Shown piece by piece: positions 200 to 31,359 of a stretch of 40,772 bases of DNA. Every line of letters starts with the position of its first letter. The first letter of the stretch is position 1. Under the pieces are notes generated by a model. The model was not told the DNA's origin. It made no database searches and saw only the letters and a program-made list of their open reading frames with translations. The DNA comes from a virus. The translations under genes and the position numbers were made by a program. The stretch is taken from UHGV virus genome UHGV-0354473. One strand, given 5' to 3'.

Positions 200-577
200 T
201 CAGAACTGCGGCTTTAATATATTATCCCACGAAATTTCAGGATACTTATCTTTCAACACGGAAACATCATCATTGATATAATTTGTAATAGCGCCATTTC
301 GATCAATAGGCACTAATTGTTCTTGGCAGCCATCTAATTCCTGGAAAAGAGGTTGCACTGCATCTTGCAGAAACATGGAGGACGGATAAATATTTAAAGT
401 GCAACCACCGTTGGCGCTAATGAATTCTAAAATACCACCTGTGCGCGAGGTCCACAATTCAATGGACTCAGCGCCCATCAACCCTAAATGACCATTCTTC
501 ACGAAACTATCTAATCGCGTTTCAGCTAATGCGTTAAAAGCTTGAGATGCCTCACTCATGTGTAATGTAATAGCCAT
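200..577 (-). CDS. Hypothetical 125-aa cytoplasmic protein, low-GC; weak resemblance to SMI1/KNR4 (SUKH) immunity-type proteins (LEFISANGG motif)
   Basis: ATG at 577 with AAGGA RBS 7 nt upstream. The ORF is complete. Motif GGILEFISANGG is reminiscent of the FL..NGG core of SUKH-1, but this was judged by eye only. Confidence 0.5.
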   Translation of the reverse strand: MAITLHMSEASQAFNALAETRLDSFVKNGHLGLMGAESIELWTSRTGGILEFISANGGCTLNIYPSSMFLQDAVQPLFQELDGCQEQLVPIDRNGAITNYINDDVSVLKDKYPEISWDNILKPQF

Positions 578-591
578 TTTCTAATCCTTAT

Positions 592-861
592 TTATAAACC
601 AAGAAAAAGTTTCAGTGCCGGTTCAGCCTCGTCAAGAGGGTTTCCGCTGCCGCTATACAAGAAACTGTGTCTATACGGTGTTGTACCGATAACACCATCT
701 ACAGTTACCTTAAACAACGCCCCGACGGTAGTGCCATCAAAACTGTCAAGCCCTGCCACTTCGAAAATAACGGGTATATCCACTTCAGAATCAGTTATAG
801 TAACCCCAAAGTCAGGATAGCTTACCACTCTGTTAACTTTCATGGTTGATTGTATACTCAT
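592..861 (-). CDS. Hypothetical 89-aa protein, low-GC and beta-rich
   Basis: ATG at 861 with AAGGATAAAG upstream. It lies in the same leftward low-GC cassette. Confidence 0.45.
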   Translation of the reverse strand: MSIQSTMKVNRVVSYPDFGVTITDSEVDIPVIFEVAGLDSFDGTTVGALFKVTVDGVIGTTPYRHSFLYSGSGNPLDEAEPALKLFLGL

Positions 862-866
862 AATCT

Positions 867-1055
867 TTATCCTTTATTCCTGATATTCGATACGGTGGTA
901 TTTATGCCCATTATAGCAATAAACAACACAGCTGTTATCACCCAGTTGTCATCAATAAACCCCGGATAATGTTTTTCTATCAAAGACCCAATATATGCAA
1001 AAACTAATAAATCAAAACGATTCGACCACTTAGCAGAAAGTTTCCAGTTTTTCAC
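867..1055 (-). CDS. Small 62-aa membrane protein with two predicted TM helices (pinholin-like topology), GTG start
   Basis: GTG start overlaps the stop of the upstream lipoprotein gene (GTGA coupling), preceded by GGAGGA. Hydrophobic stretches are FDLLVFAYIGSLI and WVITAVLFIAIMGI. Confidence 0.4.
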   Translation of the reverse strand: MKNWKLSAKWSNRFDLLVFAYIGSLIEKHYPGFIDDNWVITAVLFIAIMGINTTVSNIRNKG

Positions 1056-1372
1056 ATATCCTCCGACAGCCCGTCAATACACCCTTTAAAACCATACGCC
1101 ACAACGTCGGCGCGTCTCAATGACGGATTGCTGTAGATCGTAACAGCGATGCGCGTCATGCCTGATTTAATGGCCGGTGACATATCGCTGCCGTTGATAA
1201 TCTTGGTTACCGACTCCAGCGAGTCGCCGCGGTTCCGGGCGTCGACGATAACGCCGCCCATTTCGGCTAACTCCTGGCACATCTCCACCTCGGTAACGGC
1301 AGCGGCGGACCCGGCATACGAGCAGCCCAGGACGGCGGCCAGCGTGATTGCGATTGCGGTAATACGTTTCAT
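1052..1372 (-). CDS. Lipoprotein, 106 aa; signal peptide MKRITAIAITLAAVLG-C, lipobox VLGC
   Basis: Internal ATG at 1372 is preceded by CAGGAGCAAACACA, a strong SD. The lipobox cysteine sits at +19. The track ORF extends further 5' but has no RBS. Confidence 0.55.
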   Translation of the reverse strand: MKRITAIAITLAAVLGCSYAGSAAAVTEVEMCQELAEMGGVIVDARNRGDSLESVTKIINGSDMSPAIKSGMTRIAVTIYSNPSLRRADVVAYGFKGCIDGLSEDM

Positions 1373-1393
1373 TGTGTTTGCTCCTGAAAGTGG

Positions 1394-1409
1394 CCCCGCG
1401 AGGGGCCTG
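1394..1409 (-). terminator. GC hairpin GGCCCC-GCGA-GGGGCC immediately 3' of gene 1416..1727; weak or leaky terminator, or RNA processing site
   Basis: Perfect 6-bp stem with a GCGA tetraloop. The downstream U-run on the minus strand is poor. Confidence 0.3.
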
Positions 1410-1415
1410 TGTTGG

Positions 1416-1727
1416 TTAAAGAGGTATAGTCTTTCCGTATGTGACACGGTTTTCCCCTACCACAGGCTTGCGGCTAACGTAACCAGCTGTCAGGCGCTCG
1501 GTTGCGGTCATTGGGCGGGAAGAAACAACCCGAGAAGTATGTTTAACTTCCGGCAATGCGTTGCTATTGCTGTCGCCGGTCATAACGTATTGCGCAACGG
1601 AGTGGTTAAGCATATCGCGGAAAGTAATCTCAACTTTTGGTTCGTTGCGTGACGCCTCAGCCTTAGCTTTCATTTTTTCCCAACGTGCTTCGCCGTACTT
1701 TGCAATCATCTTTTCGCTAAAAGTCAT
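1416..1727 (-). CDS. Hypothetical 103-aa protein
   Basis: ATG at 1727 with GAGGATAAG SD at 8-nt spacing. The track's GTG start at 1754 lies inside the promoter element. Confidence 0.5.
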   Translation of the reverse strand: MTFSEKMIAKYGEARWEKMKAKAEASRNEPKVEITFRDMLNHSVAQYVMTGDSNSNALPEVKHTSRVVSSRPMTATERLTAGYVSRKPVVGENRVTYGKTIPL

Positions 1728-1773
1728 CGTCTTATCCTCGTTCGTCTGCGGCACCGCGCCGCCCTATGAACTA

Positions 1774-1809: not shown

Positions 1810-2301
1810 TTACAGATATTTTGCGATATCTGCGATCGAGCACTGGACGATGCACGCACCGTCGGGGTTGGGCCGGCGGCCAAAGATGATGATCTGCGAA
1901 TCGCGGTTATTCTTCGTCGCCGCGCGCTCGCCGGTTCGGGCGTGGATAAACTGGATGCGCTCGGTTAGCTGAATGATGGTATTCGCCTCCCGGCGCGCAA
2001 TATCCATCCACTGCGTAGCAACGGCCAGGTGCAGGAGCAACACCGTTTTACGGTACAGCGCGGCGTGCTGGAACCACGGCAGCGGCTTCGAGTAAGGCGG
2101 GTTACACCATTTCCACGCCGCGGGCCACTCGATGCCAAGGGCGCTGTTCTGTTCGGTGTAGTACCGCGCGCAAAGGGCGTTGTGATCGGCTGCCGCCATG
2201 TCGTAGCGGAAATTAAACCGCTCATTGAGCGGCTCGAATATCTCCGGTGGCGAGCGCCAGCAATCTTTATCCTCCGGCGCCGTGTTTGATTTGTCAGCCA
2301 T
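1810..2301 (-). CDS. DNA N6-adenine methyltransferase, phage Dam family (PF05869-like)
   Basis: Motif IV NPPY (WCNPPYSK) and the characteristic NALCARYYT..GIEWP context. Its start overlaps the helicase stop. Confidence 0.8.
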   Translation of the reverse strand: MADKSNTAPEDKDCWRSPPEIFEPLNERFNFRYDMAAADHNALCARYYTEQNSALGIEWPAAWKWCNPPYSKPLPWFQHAALYRKTVLLLHLAVATQWMDIARREANTIIQLTERIQFIHARTGERAATKNNRDSQIIIFGRRPNPDGACIVQCSIADIAKYL

Positions 2302-15055: not shown

Positions 15056-15304
15056 TGATACGGGGTGGCGGGATAATTTTTCTGGTTGGTTGCGGTGATT
15101 CTGGCAGCGGGTTACGTTGGATTTAGTGTCGGTAATGGGTGGTAACCTATATGGCTAATAGGCTCTCGTATAGCAGGTCTGGCGGGCATTGGGGATGGCG
15201 GGCTCTATTAAGATTAGTCCTAGCGAAATCCGCACTCCACGCGCACAAGTAGGCTAGTAGACTACCATACCAGTTACCGCGGCCCTTATTTTTGCTATCC
15301 GGTA

Positions 15305-15334
15305 TTGCAACCAACATTGATTTAGACATATACT
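15305..15334 (+). promoter_or_regulatory. Rightward promoter TTGCAA-18-TATACT for the early small-gene operon
   Basis: -35 is the first hexamer of the TTGCAACCAACA element (15305-15316). -10 is at 15329-15334, and the first gene has a GAGGAG RBS. Confidence 0.5.
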
Positions 15335-17125: not shown

Positions 17126-17158
17126 CCCCCGAATACTATTCATTCGGGGGTCCTTTTT
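17126..17158 (+). terminator. Rho-independent terminator ending the early operon
   Basis: CCCCCGAAT-ACTATTC-ATTCGGGGG hairpin followed by TCCTTTTT. Confidence 0.6.
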
Positions 17159-17159
17159 G

Positions 17160-17438
17160 ATGGACAGATATTTCTGGCTTGTCGTCGCTGCCGTATGTGG
17201 CGGCATCGTGGCCCAGGTGAAGAAAGCAGAGCAGCTACCGTTATGGAAGCGCTGCGCTCACCTGGCCGCCGGTGCCGCTTGTGCCGTTTACTTCTCACCG
17301 TTTGGGATCCGCTATTTCGAGCTGGCGGACACCGACGGGCAATACCTGGTGCCTTTCGTGATCGGCGCCTTCTGGTGGAAATTCTTCGAGGCCCTGGAAG
17401 TGGCGGCGAGCAGCTTTAAACTACCGTGGGGTAAATAG
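17160..17438 (+). CDS. Holin-like protein, 92 aa, three predicted TM helices
   Basis: ATG at 17160 with GGGGG SD. It sits immediately upstream of a second TM protein and the endolysin. Confidence 0.55.
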   Translation: MDRYFWLVVAAVCGGIVAQVKKAEQLPLWKRCAHLAAGAACAVYFSPFGIRYFELADTDGQYLVPFVIGAFWWKFFEALEVAASSFKLPWGK

Positions 17439-17440
17439 CC

Positions 17441-17725
17441 ATGCTTAGTGCCTTCTGCCTTTCCGTTATCGCCGCAACCGCGCTGTTTAATATTTATGCC
17501 CACTGGATTGACGACGGCCTGCTGGGCCGGCTGGTGTTCATGGGCCTGTTTCTCACCTGCGGCGCCGGGCTGATCCACATCTACAAAGACGGCAGCGCGC
17601 CGCTATTCATCTGGTCAACACTCCTTGTGCTGGTCACCCTTTCATTTCTGCGCAGCGTCTGCGTTAAGTCGGTGCGCTATATCAAATATCGGAGATTAAT
17701 CCATGCGAAGAACAGTCAGCGATAA
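17441..17725 (+). CDS. Second holin/antiholin-like membrane protein, 94 aa, three TM helices, basic C-terminus
   Basis: GTGGGG SD. Its hydrophobic profile and position make it a lysis-cassette member. Confidence 0.5.
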   Translation: MLSAFCLSVIAATALFNIYAHWIDDGLLGRLVFMGLFLTCGAGLIHIYKDGSAPLFIWSTLLVLVTLSFLRSVCVKSVRYIKYRRLIHAKNSQR

Positions 17726-18197
17726 CGCCGTTGAATTTGCCCGGCGCTGGGAGACGTTTAAGCCTGTGCCATATTACGCAACTGCCAAAGAGAAAGAGCT
17801 GGGGATCCTGACCTGGGGTTACGGCCATACTGGTACGCGAGCCCAGGCGCCGGCAAGTATCACGGAGCCGGACGCACGGGCCTTACTGCGCCAGGATATG
17901 ACGCACGCTTGTGTTATCGTCGATGCCGCCGCGCATCCGCTGGTCACCGGGCCATATTTCGACGCTATGGTGGACCTGGTATTCAACGCCGGGCCGAAAG
18001 TTATCGGCGCCGATACGGGTACCGGCCAGGCGCTGCGCCGTGGTGATATTGCGACGCTGCGCACCAAGCTGCCGCAGTTCATCTATCAGGGTGGTAAACC
18101 ATTGCTGGGGCTGCGCCGGCGTGCAACCGGGCGACTCGCGCTGTTCGACGGCAAATCGGCAGCTGAGGCCGAGGCTATTGGCAGAGCTGTGAAGTAG
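17703..18197 (+). CDS. Putative endolysin, lysozyme-like (GH24-like GYGHTG motif)
   Basis: The WGYGHTG motif and its position directly after the holin genes. The catalytic-residue spacing is atypical, so the call is only moderately confident. Confidence 0.55.
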   Translation: MRRTVSDNAVEFARRWETFKPVPYYATAKEKELGILTWGYGHTGTRAQAPASITEPDARALLRQDMTHACVIVDAAAHPLVTGPYFDAMVDLVFNAGPKVIGADTGTGQALRRGDIATLRTKLPQFIYQGGKPLLGLRRRATGRLALFDGKSAAEAEAIGRAVK

Positions 18198-18276: not shown

Positions 18277-18345
18277 GACCGCCACTTGTAATGTTGGTTG
18301 CAATATGGTTATACTCATATCGTCAATCACACAGGAGCAAACGAA

Positions 18346-24247: not shown

Positions 24248-24530
24248 TAAATTACGCGTAACGGTGACTCGCAAGACTCGCAAAATTTTGCGAGTCGAAT
24301 TGCGAGTATAAATATCAAGGACTTACGCTCATTTCGTTGGTTGCTGCCGTTTTAGTTTGCGAGTGGTGAAATTAGGTGAGTAAAATCAAGGAGTTACAAC
24401 GTGGAAGGCTGAATCGATCACTTCAATTGCTTGTTGCGCGCCCGCCCTAGCGGGGCGTCGCTCAAAAGCGAAGCTGATCGTATCATTTATTTTGCGAGAA
24501 ATCAACGGCAGCAATTGTAAAGGTGGCGAT
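24240..24530. repeat. Non-coding regulatory module copy 2, homologous to 14745-15055: four ACTCGCAA half-sites in palindrome, a GATC-flanked GC hairpin and the TTTTGCGAG...TTGTAAAGG core running into the Rz RBS
   Basis: Iteron block 24266-24308, TCGATCAC at 24414-24421, CTGATCGTATCAT at 24474-24486 and TTGCGAG at 24492-24498. Confidence 0.7.
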
Positions 24531-24920
24531 ATGGGCTTAAGACTTTATTTTATAACGGTGGGTTTAATGGCACTTCTTGCGTGGGGCGCCGGTGAGTGGT
24601 CTTTTCGTGCGGGGTGGCATGAGGGCCGCGCGAAGCTGGCAGCCCAGCAGGAAGAGAAGGCCCGGGCGACTCTGGCGAAGCAGGTAGCCGGACAGCAGGT
24701 GAACGATACGAAGGCCGCCGAAGCCGAACAGGCCGGCTCCGCGAAAACCGTAGTAATAACCCGAGAGGTGGTTAAATATGTGCAAAATCATGATCGTGTG
24801 CGCTGTACTTTTGACGATGACCGGGTGCGGATCAAGCAGCGGTCCGTCGATAATGCCAACACCATCCCAGGCTATGATGGTGAAGCCGTGCCAGTTTCAG
24901 CCGGCGGAAAAGGACAGTGA
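24531..24920 (+). CDS. i-spanin (Rz-like): N-terminal TM anchor plus periplasmic coiled-coil
   Basis: ATG at 24531 with AAGGTGG SD. The TM segment is LYFITVGLMALLAWGA, the domain is helical and Ala/Gln/Glu-rich, and the o-spanin gene is embedded in the +1 frame. Confidence 0.6.
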   Translation: MGLRLYFITVGLMALLAWGAGEWSFRAGWHEGRAKLAAQQEEKARATLAKQVAGQQVNDTKAAEAEQAGSAKTVVITREVVKYVQNHDRVRCTFDDDRVRIKQRSVDNANTIPGYDGEAVPVSAGGKGQ

Positions 24921-25026
24921 CGAAGATTTGAATGCGGACGTGCAGAACATGGATTGTGGGAGAAAGTTAAGGCTGCAGGTGTACCAGCTGCAGGACTGGA
25001 TCCGGAATGTGACAACGCCCCTATAA
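24778..25026 (+). CDS. o-spanin (Rz1-like) outer-membrane lipoprotein, overlapped with Rz
   Basis: Signal MCKIMIVCAVLLTMTG-C lipobox followed by a Pro-rich mature region (SSSGPSIMPTPS). GAGGTGG SD. It starts inside Rz in another frame. Confidence 0.6.
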   Translation: MCKIMIVCAVLLTMTGCGSSSGPSIMPTPSQAMMVKPCQFQPAEKDSDEDLNADVQNMDCGRKLRLQVYQLQDWIRNVTTPL

Positions 25027-25040
25027 CGGGGCGTTTTTTA
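25017..25040. terminator. Bidirectional rho-independent terminator shared by Rz1 (+) and the antisense mini-operon (-)
   Basis: GCCCC-TATAA-CGGGGC hairpin followed by GTTTTTTA. The minus-strand ORF stop lies in the hairpin. Confidence 0.6.
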
Positions 25041-25161
25041 TCAACCAGGCCAGGCCCCAGCAGACGAAGGCGATGGTTAGCCACGCTGCCGGGAGATAGA
25101 CCAGAAACACCCGGCGCCGTTGCTGGTACTTCGTCGGGTTACGCTTTGCCATTGGTTTCAT
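25021..25161 (-). CDS. Small 46-aa membrane peptide (MKPMAKRNPTKYQQRRRVFLVYLPAAWLTIAFVCWGLAWLIKNAPL)
   Basis: Not in the ORF track (<60 aa). ATGA coupling to the upstream basic ORF, a basic N-terminus followed by one TM helix, and a terminator immediately after. Confidence 0.45.
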   Translation of the reverse strand: MKPMAKRNPTKYQQRRRVFLVYLPAAWLTIAFVCWGLAWLIKNAPL

Positions 25162-25310
25162 CGGCCGAATCTCCTTGCGGCTTTATGAATCCATTTTGGT
25201 GTTTTCCCAAGACTCAAAATGGTGTACGCAGTAGCGAGACGACGCGCACAACGACGGAGGCGGCGTAAGTCGACCTTTCCGGATTTACGGTATTTAGTTG
25301 ATACAGGCAT
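25158..25310 (-). CDS. Small 50-aa highly basic protein (MPVSTKYRKSGKVDLRRLRRCARRLATAYTILSLGKTPKWIHKAARRFGR)
   Basis: Not in the ORF track. Strong SD AAAGGAG 8 nt upstream of ATG 25310. It is transcribed from the conserved leftward promoter 25341-25369. Confidence 0.45.
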   Translation of the reverse strand: MPVSTKYRKSGKVDLRRLRRCARRLATAYTILSLGKTPKWIHKAARRFGR

Positions 25311-25340
25311 AGCTATTGCTCCTTTGTTGTTGGTTTCTTA

Positions 25341-25369
25341 AATATAATATGTCTCCACTCATATTGCAA
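25341..25369 (-). promoter_or_regulatory. Leftward promoter TTGCAA-17-TATATT; about 40 bp near-identical to the promoter element at 1774-1808
   Basis: -35 at 25364-25369 (part of TTGCAACCAACA at 25364-25375) and -10 (rc AATATA) at 25341-25346. Confidence 0.55.
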
Positions 25370-25471
25370 CCAACATTTGCAGATATATTGTTAATACTTG
25401 CGCTGCCCTGTATATTTAGCGTATGTAAATCCGGGTGGCCCGGATTCATAAAGACCAGGGGTCTACGTACT

Positions 25472-26170: not shown

Positions 26171-27139
26171 ATGTCTCTCTCGAACATGAAGGTTTACGAC
26201 CGCCAGATTTACGGCGCTACCATCGAACTGCTCGGCCAGAAAACCGACCAGTTTAACGCCAACTCTGGTGGCGCTATCGTGCTGTCCTCGCAGGCGTGGG
26301 AAGGTGATTTCACCAAAGAATCTTTCTACAACCAGATCGCGTCCGCGCAGCGCCGCGTTGACCGCTACGCCGCTATCGCTACCCAGGCGGGCACCAACTT
26401 AACCCAGGGTGAAAACGTTGGTGTTAAAGTCGCCGGCGGCTTTGGCCCGATCGTATTCGAGCCGTCCCAGCTTACCTGGCTGCAGCGTAACCCGACCGAA
26501 GCGGTTATGGCGATCTCCGAAGGTTTCGCCGACGCCCTGCTGGCGGACCAGCTTAACACCGCATTAGCGGCAGCGGTTGCCGCGGTATCGGGCCAGACTG
26601 CGCTGGTTAACGATGTCTCTGCTAGTGCCGGTATCAGCCTCGGTGCACTGAATAACAGCCACGCTAAATTCGGCGATCAGTCTCAACTGCTGGTGACCGA
26701 TGTTATGACCGGCGCGGTATATCACAAGCTGATCGGTCAGGCGATCACCAACGCTAACCAGCTGTTTGTCTCCAGTAACGTGCTGGTTGTCGATATCCTC
26801 GGCAAGCGTTACGTGGTTACCGACTCCCCGGCCCTGTATGAAGCAGGCACGCCGAATAAGTCGAAAGTGCTGTCTGTCGTGGCGCAGGGTATCGTCGTAG
26901 ACAATACCAGCGACATCATCACCAACATGGAAACGTCGAACGGTAAAACCCGTATCGAAACCACCTGGCAGGCGGATTACTCTTTCGGTCTGAAACTGAA
27001 AGGTTACGCCTGGGACGTCACCAACGGCGGCAAATCTCCGACCGATGCCGAACTGGCTACCTCGTCCAACTGGGACAAAGCCGTTACCGAGAACAAGCAT
27101 ACCCTGGGTACGCTGGCCATCGTCGACGCAGACCTGTAA
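26171..27139 (+). CDS. Major capsid protein
   Basis: 322-aa protein after the scaffold, followed by a strong terminator, in the conserved late-gene order. Confidence 0.75.
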   Translation: MSLSNMKVYDRQIYGATIELLGQKTDQFNANSGGAIVLSSQAWEGDFTKESFYNQIASAQRRVDRYAAIATQAGTNLTQGENVGVKVAGGFGPIVFEPSQLTWLQRNPTEAVMAISEGFADALLADQLNTALAAAVAAVSGQTALVNDVSASAGISLGALNNSHAKFGDQSQLLVTDVMTGAVYHKLIGQAITNANQLFVSSNVLVVDILGKRYVVTDSPALYEAGTPNKSKVLSVVAQGIVVDNTSDIITNMETSNGKTRIETTWQADYSFGLKLKGYAWDVTNGGKSPTDAELATSSNWDKAVTENKHTLGTLAIVDADL

Positions 27140-30908: not shown

Positions 30909-30935
30909 AGAAAGGGGCCGTTAGGCCCCTTCCCT
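30909..30935. terminator. Bidirectional terminator between the major tail gene (+) and the antisense cassette (-)
   Basis: AGGGGCC-GTTA-GGCCCCT hairpin. The minus strand is followed by TTCTTTT. Confidence 0.6.
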
Positions 30936-31106
30936 TAGCGCTTTAAGCATTTTCAACGCCATAGGCACGGAGGAAGTTCCAAGTATTTCAACATCGCCGC
31001 CGCGGTCAAGTACATGAAAACGGCAGTGGGTTAAGGTAATATACACCTCAGAAAATCGGTGATTCTTCATTTCTTCCAGTAAATCAGCCATAAGACTAAT
31101 AGCCAC
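30921..31106 (-). CDS. Small 56-61-aa protein (MADLLEEMKNHRFSEVYITLTHCRFHVLDRGGDVEILGTSSVPMALKMLKALREGA), second gene of the antisense cassette
   Basis: GTG at 31106 or ATG at 31091. Its stop lies in the terminator hairpin. Confidence 0.45.
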   Translation of the reverse strand: MAISLMADLLEEMKNHRFSEVYITLTHCRFHVLDRGGDVEILGTSSVPMALKMLKALREGA

Positions 31107-31284
31107 GTTTCGCCCTCTCTTCTGTCAGTTTAACAATTTCGCTTTTTACTTCCGGTTTCGCATTCGCCAGAATCTGGCGCAGCAATTCAACCTGTTCGCT
31201 TGACCGCGTAGCGTAGCGCACCACGAAGAACAGCACGGCCAGGTTTAGGCCCATCGCCAGAATTGCTATAATGAATTGCGTCAT
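31096..31284 (-). CDS. Small 62-aa membrane protein (N-terminal TM plus charged helical tail), first gene of the antisense cassette
   Basis: ATG at 31284 with AAGAGGA SD. The TM segment is FIIAILAMGLNLAVLFFVV. A divergent promoter region lies upstream. Confidence 0.5.
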   Translation of the reverse strand: MTQFIIAILAMGLNLAVLFFVVRYATRSSEQVELLRQILANAKPEVKSEIVKLTEERAKRGY

Positions 31285-31359
31285 GGTATATTCCTCTTTG
31301 AAAGTTCTATATGTATATAATCATATCGCAACCAACAAATCAACCATAGCGGGTTAAAA

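Follow-up and report, generated by a model that had tools for sequence, protein, structure and literature searches.

A probable moron-like cassette with a variable cargo slot between the spanin and scaffold genes of a Klebsiella siphophage

What role might two very small genes play on the minus strand in the structural region of a virulent Klebsiella siphophage? The question is raised by the virus genome UHGV-0354473, a stretch of 40,772 nucleotides that is referred to here as the window. Between its Rz/Rz1 spanin genes and its head scaffold gene lies a cassette of two open reading frames (ORFs) on the opposite strand: ORF1, which encodes an Arg/Lys-rich protein of 50 residues, and ORF2, which encodes a 46-residue peptide with a single transmembrane (TM) helix. 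The original prediction of this cassette, made from the letters alone, proposed a promoter-driven toxin/antitoxin, a lysis-timing pair or a superinfection-exclusion moron. The two-ORF layout it described, including the coordinates and lengths, the ATGA overlap in which the ORF1 stop codon TGA shares bases with the ORF2 start codon ATG, and the AAAGGAG Shine-Dalgarno (SD) sequence, was recovered in full from the sequence. Morons, in the concept associated with Hendrix and Juhala, are extra transcription units inserted between conserved phage genes. We favor, with moderate confidence, the reading that the cassette is a moron-like accessory-gene unit at a diversity hotspot and is probably directed at the host.

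The region around the cassette is 81–85% identical to the Klebsiella siphophages 37P2 (ON107243) and VLCpiS11a (ON602745) of the subfamily Guernseyvirinae, which are the closest relatives of this phage. To assess selection, we aligned 11 related cassettes, drawn from these two GenBank phages and from contigs recovered via homologs of both proteins. For ORF1, the ratio of nonsynonymous to synonymous change (pN/pS) is 0.33 in the called frame and 0.99 and 1.71 in the shifted frames, with 24, 17 and 41 variable columns at the first, second and third codon positions. ORF2 yields 0.17 against 1.11 and 1.86 among close relatives (8, 7 and 20 variable columns), and 0.39 against 1.22 and 1.00 when all variants are included (17, 16 and 31). 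Since purifying selection is specific to the called frames, variation in both genes concentrates at third codon positions and indels stay in frame, the alignments indicate that ORF1 and ORF2 are real protein genes under purifying selection. The original prediction had pointed to non-coding evolution in relatives as the result that would speak against it; in-frame values of 0.17–0.39 beside shifted-frame values of 0.99–1.86 place the region on the coding side. The third-position pattern of the minus-strand frames also ruled out a plus-strand ORF of 104 residues at 24954..25268, and an Rfam search of the region returned no RNA family. Nor are the ORFs invisible to gene callers, as had been supposed: ORF2 is annotated in 37P2 (UOX38048.1), an ORF1 homolog is annotated in the podophage CX1 (CX1_20), and both ORFs are called in metagenome assemblies.

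The organization of the cassette became apparent from a survey of every retrievable ORF2-encoding locus from GenBank, Logan and ENA contigs, IMG/VR and JGI metagenomes, in which the intervening slot was gauged by how far the ORF2 ATG lies from the −35 hexamer. The slot is empty at 60 nucleotides in L006–8 and L013, where ORF2 has an SD of its own (TAAGGAGG or GAGGGG); in L006 and L013 the leader runs directly into it. At a distance of 208–213 nucleotides the slot holds ORF1 alone, in about ten distinct genomes (the window, 37P2, VLCpiS11a, L009–12, L014 and L023). Elsewhere the same space holds a 56-residue acidic protein (208 nucleotides, L024), a 71-residue protein (about 279 nucleotides, estimated, L031), a 65-residue protein (L035), an 88-residue protein (302 nucleotides, L020), a 75-residue protein (323 nucleotides, L021/L033), an 83-residue protein (357 nucleotides, L019), a 75-residue protein together with ORF1 (456 nucleotides, L018) or a 283-residue protein resembling 3′-phosphoadenosine 5′-phosphosulfate (PAPS) reductase (912 nucleotides, L022). 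Families could be assigned to three of these cargo genes, and some of the families also occur in unrelated phages. The 83-residue protein belongs to phrog_11449, present in T1-like phages; the 75-residue protein to phrog_1585, found in enterobacterial phages with genomes of ~108–118 kb and in Pseudomonas phages; and the reductase to phrog_424, a family that PHROGs places in its category “moron, auxiliary metabolic gene and host takeover”. No slot cargo matches a known defense or anti-defense family. The upstream edge of the variable region falls after ...CCAACAAC in the 5′ leader, and variation starts about 20–30 nucleotides downstream of the −10 hexamer. By this comparison the space behind the promoter is a hypervariable cargo slot with at least nine states, ORF1 being one of at least eight alternative cargo genes and ORF2 the constant gene. 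In about half of the distinct genomes ORF2 is accompanied by an empty slot or by other cargo, and at least seven unrelated genes take the place of ORF1.

ORF1 likewise occurs without ORF2. Its homologs in relatives of the window are 60–90% identical, and tblastn recovers full-length matches at ~62% identity in podophages of the genus Drulisvirus, among them KpV74, CX1, JKP2, P6a and others. There the gene lies between a gene of 51–52 residues and the DNA polymerase gene, overlapping both, and metagenomic contigs show the same position. Because ~62% amino acid identity is retained although the DNA is well diverged between Drulisvirus and the window, ORF1 is a real protein family common to two unrelated phage groups. 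It is accessory in Drulisvirus too, since phage fHe-Kpn01 has an unrelated 118-residue gene in its place; for the same reason a toxicity screen of fHe-Kpn01 (PMC7291057) carries no information on ORF1 and was dropped. As each gene is found without the other, ORF1 and ORF2 do not appear to be a cognate pair, and the functional pairing of a basic protein with a membrane peptide that was originally proposed fails on co-occurrence.

The ORF1 family has an invariant core, Y-x-x-SG-x-x-DLRR-x-RR-x-ARRL, followed by a C-terminal RRF. The Arg-Arg codons of this last motif (AGGAGA) supply the SD of the next gene. In CX1 the same AGGAGATTCGG with the same 9-nucleotide spacing stands ahead of the DNA polymerase start, where the overlap is GTGA. 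ORF1 thus seems to carry its own coupling SD, which would serve whichever gene follows, ORF2 in the window and DNA polymerase in CX1. The Arg/Lys content of about 30% originally attributed to the protein is borne out, with 16 of its 50 residues being Lys or Arg, and, judged from composition only, it probably binds nucleic acid or an acidic partner. The AF2 model contains an extended N-terminus and two helices (residues 15–31 and 39–49), and a Foldseek search with it gave no BFVD match below E = 1 and no PDB match. The family is small. A word-indexed search of 5.8 billion proteins yielded 12 clusters or relatives of ORF1 (and nine relatives of ORF2), while an exhaustive HMMER search with the ORF1 profile against 1.84 billion representative proteins recovered only the family itself and no distant relatives. 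An Arg-rich repeat that matched the profile at E = 3e-4 did so over positions 6–23 only, in five stretches, and was taken as compositional. A “GK(R)VDL” string shared with the 88-residue cargo of L020 was considered as a sign of kinship and rejected when BLASTP produced no alignment. Neither ORF1 nor ORF2 has a significant family in Pfam, PHROGs, NCBIfam or PADLOC, the best sub-threshold matches being phrog_5252 (E = 0.018), DUF6284 (E = 0.072) and SepX/GlpR (15.6 bits, with a cut-off of 160), and profile searches of both against PDB sequences gave noise only.

ORF2 is 85–98% identical at the peptide level in relatives, and its two ends and its middle evolve differently. The basic N-terminus and single TM helix named in the original prediction are both evident: the N-terminal 17-mer has a net charge of +7 and is followed by a hydrophobic stretch with a Kyte-Doolittle maximum of 1.91 over 19 residues. 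We compared the window with L006, the most divergent variant, region by region. The N-terminal 17 codons show five synonymous and two nonsynonymous differences; the TM region shows none and 17, respectively, together with an in-frame deletion of four codons; and the last six codons show two and none. In a divergent 42-residue variant (P0016), the frame is kept through a 12-nucleotide deletion and the helix is replaced yet hydrophobic. Another variant (P0009; L035, 1495..1659) reaches 54 residues by an in-frame tandem duplication of eight residues in the TM helix (AFVCWGLAFVCWGLAWL), which reads as a further sign that the anchor tolerates change. Because the N-terminus is under strict purifying selection while the helix is replaced, the basic N-terminus (MKPMAKRNPTKY..RRR) appears to be the conserved, specific and functional part of ORF2, and the TM helix a generic, replaceable anchor. 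Following the positive-inside rule, the peptide is predicted to be tail-anchored in the inner membrane with its N-terminus inside. This pattern of selection is the opposite of that in holins, antiholins and pore-forming type I toxins, and argues against a pore or holin mechanism. Met1 and Met4 are both present and invariant, and the N-terminal charge is +7 from either start. No ORF2 homolog was found in a collection of bacterial and archaeal genomes representing 185,579 species.

A scan places a sigma-70-type promoter, TTGCAA-17-TATATT, ahead of the cassette. The promoter of the original prediction is present and conserved; the description “near-consensus” does not stand, as the element matches 9 of 12 consensus positions and matches of this quality are not enriched over shuffled sequence (3 found and 2.1 expected; 14 found and 10.8 expected). 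The case for it therefore comes from comparative conservation and not from the consensus score. In a set of 17 distinct related sequences, TTGCAA is retained at −35 save for one TTGCAG and one TTGCGT, and positions T1, A2 and T6 of the −10 hexamer are kept (TATATT, TATAGT or TATGAT) save for one TACAGT, with the center of the spacer varying freely. A working sigma-70 promoter is expected to show such conserved hexamers around a variable spacer. The promoter neighborhood as a whole is more conserved than the coding sequence. An inverted repeat in the spacer, ATATG-N8-CATAT, was considered as an operator and set aside, as it is not conserved in relatives.

The −35 hexamer of the cassette lies within an 18-nucleotide module, AATGTTGGTTGCAATATG, that occurs five times in the window, where 0.00 copies are expected. 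Three of the copies are exact and the one at 31322 has three mismatches; all five sites are present in syntenic positions in VLCpiS11a, a relative at 81% identity. The copies at 1793 and 25360 share about 50 nucleotides, −10 included. Four of the five precede small-gene clusters; the remaining one looks onto a long intergenic stretch and fits better as a plus-strand promoter. At two of the sites, 15301 and 18290, the arrangement of module and best −10 departs from that of the others in register or orientation. The five copies may define a co-regulated promoter set. Upstream of the copy at 18290 stands a strong terminator hairpin (z −4.1), located after the endolysin gene, and upstream of 1793 a weak one; no hairpin is found at 15301 or 31322, and for the 25360 copy it stands at the opposite end of the cassette. 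Compared by eye, DnaA, IHF, TyrR and LexA-like boxes do not fit the module, and none is conserved.

Two other copies head minus-strand genes of their own. The copy at 1793 precedes a small-gene cluster at 200..1754, after a 163-residue ORF (1810..2301) whose position is occupied by a DNA methyltransferase in VLCpiS11a. This cluster includes a protein with a signal-peptide- or lipobox-like N-terminus (MKRITAIAITLAAVLGC..., within 1052..1447) and a hydrophobic, probably membrane, protein of 62 residues (867..1055), and is a candidate for another accessory or exclusion region. Behind the copy at 31322 comes a second pair of minus-strand genes, in the tail region (30921..31284), a 62-residue protein with an N-terminal TM helix (31096..31284) and a 61-residue protein (30921..31106), whose genes overlap by 11 nucleotides. 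The pair is flanked by the tail assembly chaperone gene and by a 388-residue gene that VLCpiS11a annotates as a minor tail protein; the same phage has an opposite-strand hypothetical gene, S11a_00044, at this position.

The boundaries of the cassette were examined on both sides. A bidirectional terminator shared by the two ORFs had been proposed for its downstream end. The hairpin at 25014–25035, however, is followed by a T-run on the plus strand only, and beyond it the minus strand continues as GTCACATTCC. Because of this polarity, the hairpin appears to be the terminator of the terminase-to-spanin operon. Its stem is invariant in all relatives, with one change in the loop, and the loop holds the ORF2 stop codon (25021–25023); the last codons of ORF2 (IKNAPL) are the T-run and stem of the same structure. 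No other minus-strand terminator was found down to 22919. On the upstream side, a divergent promoter faces the scaffold and capsid genes, with its −35 hexamer 18 bp from that of the cassette. The cassette was first taken to be antisense to a continuous late transcript; it lies instead between a plus-strand terminator and this plus-strand promoter. At the predicted 5′ end of the scaffold mRNA there is a further hairpin, invariant in relatives and present in the Kagunavirus phage Schulenburg, which has no cassette. It is probably a 5′-terminal stabilizing stem-loop of the scaffold/capsid mRNA.

37P2 and VLCpiS11a are annotated in the order terminase, portal, head morphogenesis, Rz-like spanin, a gap, head scaffolding protein and major head protein. 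The holin-holin-endolysin genes are ~7 kb from the cassette, and only the spanins adjoin it. Kagunavirus relatives lack the whole cassette, and in Schulenburg the o-spanin stop codon is 83 nucleotides from the scaffold ATG. By this comparison the cassette is a lineage-specific insertion at a junction whose genes adjoin in Kagunavirus. The moron among the options first listed is upheld in this respect: the unit has its own predicted promoter, is set into the late region and is missing from the Kagunavirus junction. The coding GC content of the cassette (0.53–0.60) is like that of its flanks and only the promoter region is AT-rich, so that the composition is not atypical.

Escherichia phage Schulenburg (L015) has a different opposite-strand insert upstream of the spanins (1075..1596, minus strand), annotated as a DNA polymerase III sliding clamp, with annotated terminators of both strands on its flanks; insertions seem to have been tolerated more than once in this part of the late region. 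One relative (L010, 1130..2992, minus strand) has a Mu-F-like head morphogenesis gene of 620 residues, compared with 349, with an intein-splicing domain (PF14890). Another (L008, 444..710, minus strand) carries a Tad2-like gene (PF11195) directly downstream of the capsid gene. The Tad2-like family is associated with anti-Thoris counter-defense, and its presence there suggests a further accessory slot.

Table 1 Coordinates of the cassette, its control elements and the neighboring genes in the window
Feature	Position	Strand	Description
ORF2	25021..25161	−	46 residues: basic 17-residue N-terminus, one TM helix, KNAPL; the constant gene
ORF1	25158..25310	−	50 residues, 16/50 Lys or Arg (32%); optional cargo of the slot
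SD of ORF2 (AAGGAG)	25171–25176	−	inside ORF1, 9 nucleotides before the ORF2 ATG
5′ leader	25311..25340	−	SD AAAGGAG at 25319–25325, 8 nucleotides ahead of the ORF1 ATG
Cassette promoter, sigma-70 type	25341..25369	−	TTGCAA-17-TATATT; from a scan, 9/12 consensus match
18-nucleotide module	25360..25377	−	around the cassette −35
Module copy	1793–1810	−	
Module copy	15301–15318	−	
Module copy	18290–18307	+	
Module copy	31322–31339	−	
Probable intrinsic terminator	25014..25041	+	after Rz1, of the upstream operon; 8-bp stem with 6 G-C pairs, then TTTTTTAT
Divergent promoter	25388..25416	+	TTGTTA-17-TATATT, scaffold and capsid genes; hexamers invariant and spacer variable in 17 relatives
5′ hairpin of scaffold mRNA (predicted)	25427..25447	+	AAATCCGGGTGGCCCGGATTC; ~20 nucleotides upstream of the ATG
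Rz	24492..24920	+	annotated spanin in relatives
Rz1	24778..25026	+	embedded lipoprotein gene; annotated spanin in relatives
Scaffold gene	ATG at 25469	+	annotated head scaffolding protein in relatives
Capsid gene	26171..27139	+	
Holin, holin, endolysin	17157..18197		matching VLCpiS11a genes 5–7

These observations can be assembled into a tentative mechanism. The block between the end of Rz1 and the ancestral scaffold promoter would consist of the spanin-operon terminator, ORF2 and a minus-strand sigma-70-type promoter. The stretch from this promoter to ORF2 would act as a plug-in slot that relatives leave empty or fill with different small genes, and ORF1 would move independently, its RRF codons coupling translation of the gene that follows. 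Host RNA polymerase is expected to transcribe the cassette independently of the structural operons. The products would then act on the host, in take-over, exclusion of other phages or counter-defense, with ORF2 presenting its N-terminal peptide on the cytoplasmic side of the membrane and forming no pore. The ~50 nucleotides shared by the module copies at 1793 and 25360 could provide a route for cargo exchange by recombination. A host-directed role is the most likely one by analogy with morons and hotspot cargo and from the PHROG category of one cargo gene.

Several points weigh against this account. The promoter, the timing of expression and the 3′ end of the transcript are all deduced from the DNA, and the literature searched offered neither transcriptome nor functional data on Klebsiella Guernseyvirinae. 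With no U-tract on the minus strand at the hairpin, the cassette is not cleanly bounded by a terminator of its own. The module may be an operator for a regulator rather than, or besides, a −35 or core promoter element, given that two of the five sites depart from the others in how the module is placed or oriented with respect to the best −10. Part of the conservation of ORF2, that of its C-terminal IKNAPL, is imposed by the terminator that it overlaps. For ORF1, the AF2 model is of moderate confidence (pLDDT, the predicted local distance difference test score, is 67), and neither protein could be assigned a function by homology, fold or family, so that the host-directed role comes from context and analogy.

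The specific guess that we prefer, as a narrower version of the favored reading, is that ORF2 is a superinfection-exclusion or membrane-protection peptide, made early from a host-type promoter and blocking the DNA entry of later phages or a membrane-acting host defense, with ORF1 as unrelated cargo; we nevertheless hold it to be unlikely. Small size and a membrane location characterize known exclusion proteins of virulent phages, for example T4 Imm. ORF2 has the corresponding size and predicted inner-membrane location, is lineage-specific and absent from the bacterial genomes searched, and stands under a sigma-70-type promoter independent of the structural operons; the second minus-strand cassette, which also encodes a membrane protein, uses the same promoter module. 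Its periplasmic part, however, amounts to only five residues, its conserved part faces the cytoplasm, and it has no sequence or family similarity to known exclusion proteins. A bolder and equally doubtful proposal is that the promoter module and the ORF2 anchor form a dedicated plug-and-play dock that captures small genes from the wider enterobacterial phage pool and expresses them. In that case ORF1 would be a self-contained mobile gene with its own coupler, and ORF2 would represent a new class of membrane-tethered peptide effector, whose basic 17-residue cytoplasmic peptide, carried on an interchangeable anchor, targets a host factor or defense. The position of ORF2, convergent with Rz/Rz1 and with its stop codon in the loop of their terminator, also brings lysis timing into view. 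ORF2 might be an antiholin-like or spanin-linked regulator acting on the holin or on Rz/Rz1, and its Met1-Lys-Pro-Met4 arrangement resembles the dual-start motifs of holins. Alternatively, since the minus strand has no U-tract at the hairpin and no further terminator as far as 22919, transcription could continue into the spanin genes and yield an antisense RNA against Rz1/Rz. We consider this family of explanations quite unlikely. The phage already has a holin pair with its endolysin ~7 kb away, Kagunavirus has the spanins in the same position without ORF2, the second Met changes little given a charge of +7 either way, and the TM helix, on which holins and antiholins depend for their action, is where ORF2 is least conserved.

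The two remaining explanations concern the ORFs themselves. Translational coupling through the ATGA overlap, and an ORF2 that is small and hydrophobic like type I toxins, would suit a cognate toxin/antitoxin-like or toxin/immunity pair. This is very improbable given that about half of the distinct genomes have ORF2 beside other cargo or an empty slot and that ORF1 occurs without ORF2 in podophages. The coupling SD, moreover, travels with ORF1 and serves DNA polymerase in Drulisvirus, and neither protein matches a toxin or antitoxin family in Pfam, NCBIfam, PADLOC or PHROGs. That the ORFs are chance frames in a regulatory intergenic region, conserved on account of promoters, the terminator or an RNA element, could draw on the stronger conservation of the neighboring promoter region and on the overlap of the ORF2 3′ end with the terminator. 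We give this explanation almost no credence: selection is purifying and frame-specific, indels are in frame, ORF1 persists at 62% amino acid identity in an unrelated phage family with diverged DNA, and there is no Rfam match.

The accessory-cassette reading that we favor can be set beside several known systems. As with morons, the cassette separates two late genes in one lineage while the Kagunavirus junction is free of it, and it has a predicted sigma-70-type promoter of its own, a hairpin at its end, an orientation opposite to the structural region around it and small protein products whose role is probably host-directed. It differs in that the phage is virulent, which leaves no prophage expression; in that the hairpin is a canonical terminator for the opposite strand only; in its GC content, which is not atypical; and in holding an internal variable slot. 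Promoter-early stem-loop (PeSL) elements are mobile regulatory cassettes of T4-type phages that provide a route for cargo exchange (PMC2839356, PMC4122927). The window shares with them a conserved sigma-70-like module that is repeated in the genome, mostly ahead of small non-essential ORFs, and at the 25360 copy the insertions, deletions and replacements between close relatives map to the module. Two of its copies (1793 and 25360) share ~50 nucleotides that could support recombination, and the 18290 copy has a strong terminator hairpin directly upstream. Unlike PeSL elements, the module is found in a siphophage of ~40 kb, in five copies only, with a stem-loop at no more than two of the five sites and a register relative to the −10 that is not constant. 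Hyper-variability hotspots, or accessory islands, of phages have been surveyed with iLund4u (bioRxiv 10.1101/2024.10.15.618418), and here too conserved flanks bracket unrelated alternative cargo in otherwise syntenic genomes. Anti-CRISPR operons of the acr-aca type offer an architectural analogy, a short unit with a conserved promoter, variable genes and a conserved last gene; that gene is a membrane peptide in the cassette and not a helix-turn-helix regulator. In contrast to both hotspots and acr-aca operons, the cargo matches no known defense or anti-defense family. Type I toxins (Hok, TisB), holins and antiholins resemble ORF2 in its size of 46 residues, single TM helix and charged end. ORF2 departs from them in having no sequence similarity and in combining a variable TM helix with a conserved basic cytoplasmic peptide; it also lies outside the lysis cassette and has no homolog in the bacterial genomes searched.

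Taken together, these results indicate that two very small and easily dismissed ORFs are real, selected genes in Klebsiella phages of the therapeutic type, and that they mark a compact hotspot at which close relatives differ. Current concepts are not overturned; the locus is a clear example of morons, hotspots and PeSL-like shuffling. Genes in such places often decide host range, exclusion or counter-defense, which makes the hotspot relevant to choosing or engineering phages against Klebsiella, and the slot, with its conserved promoter, coupling SD and tolerated insertion point, would be a natural site for payload insertion. ORF1 appears as an orphan gene that links two unrelated families of Klebsiella phages, siphophages and podophages, and the five-copy module may provide a handle on the unstudied transcription program of the Guernseyvirinae.

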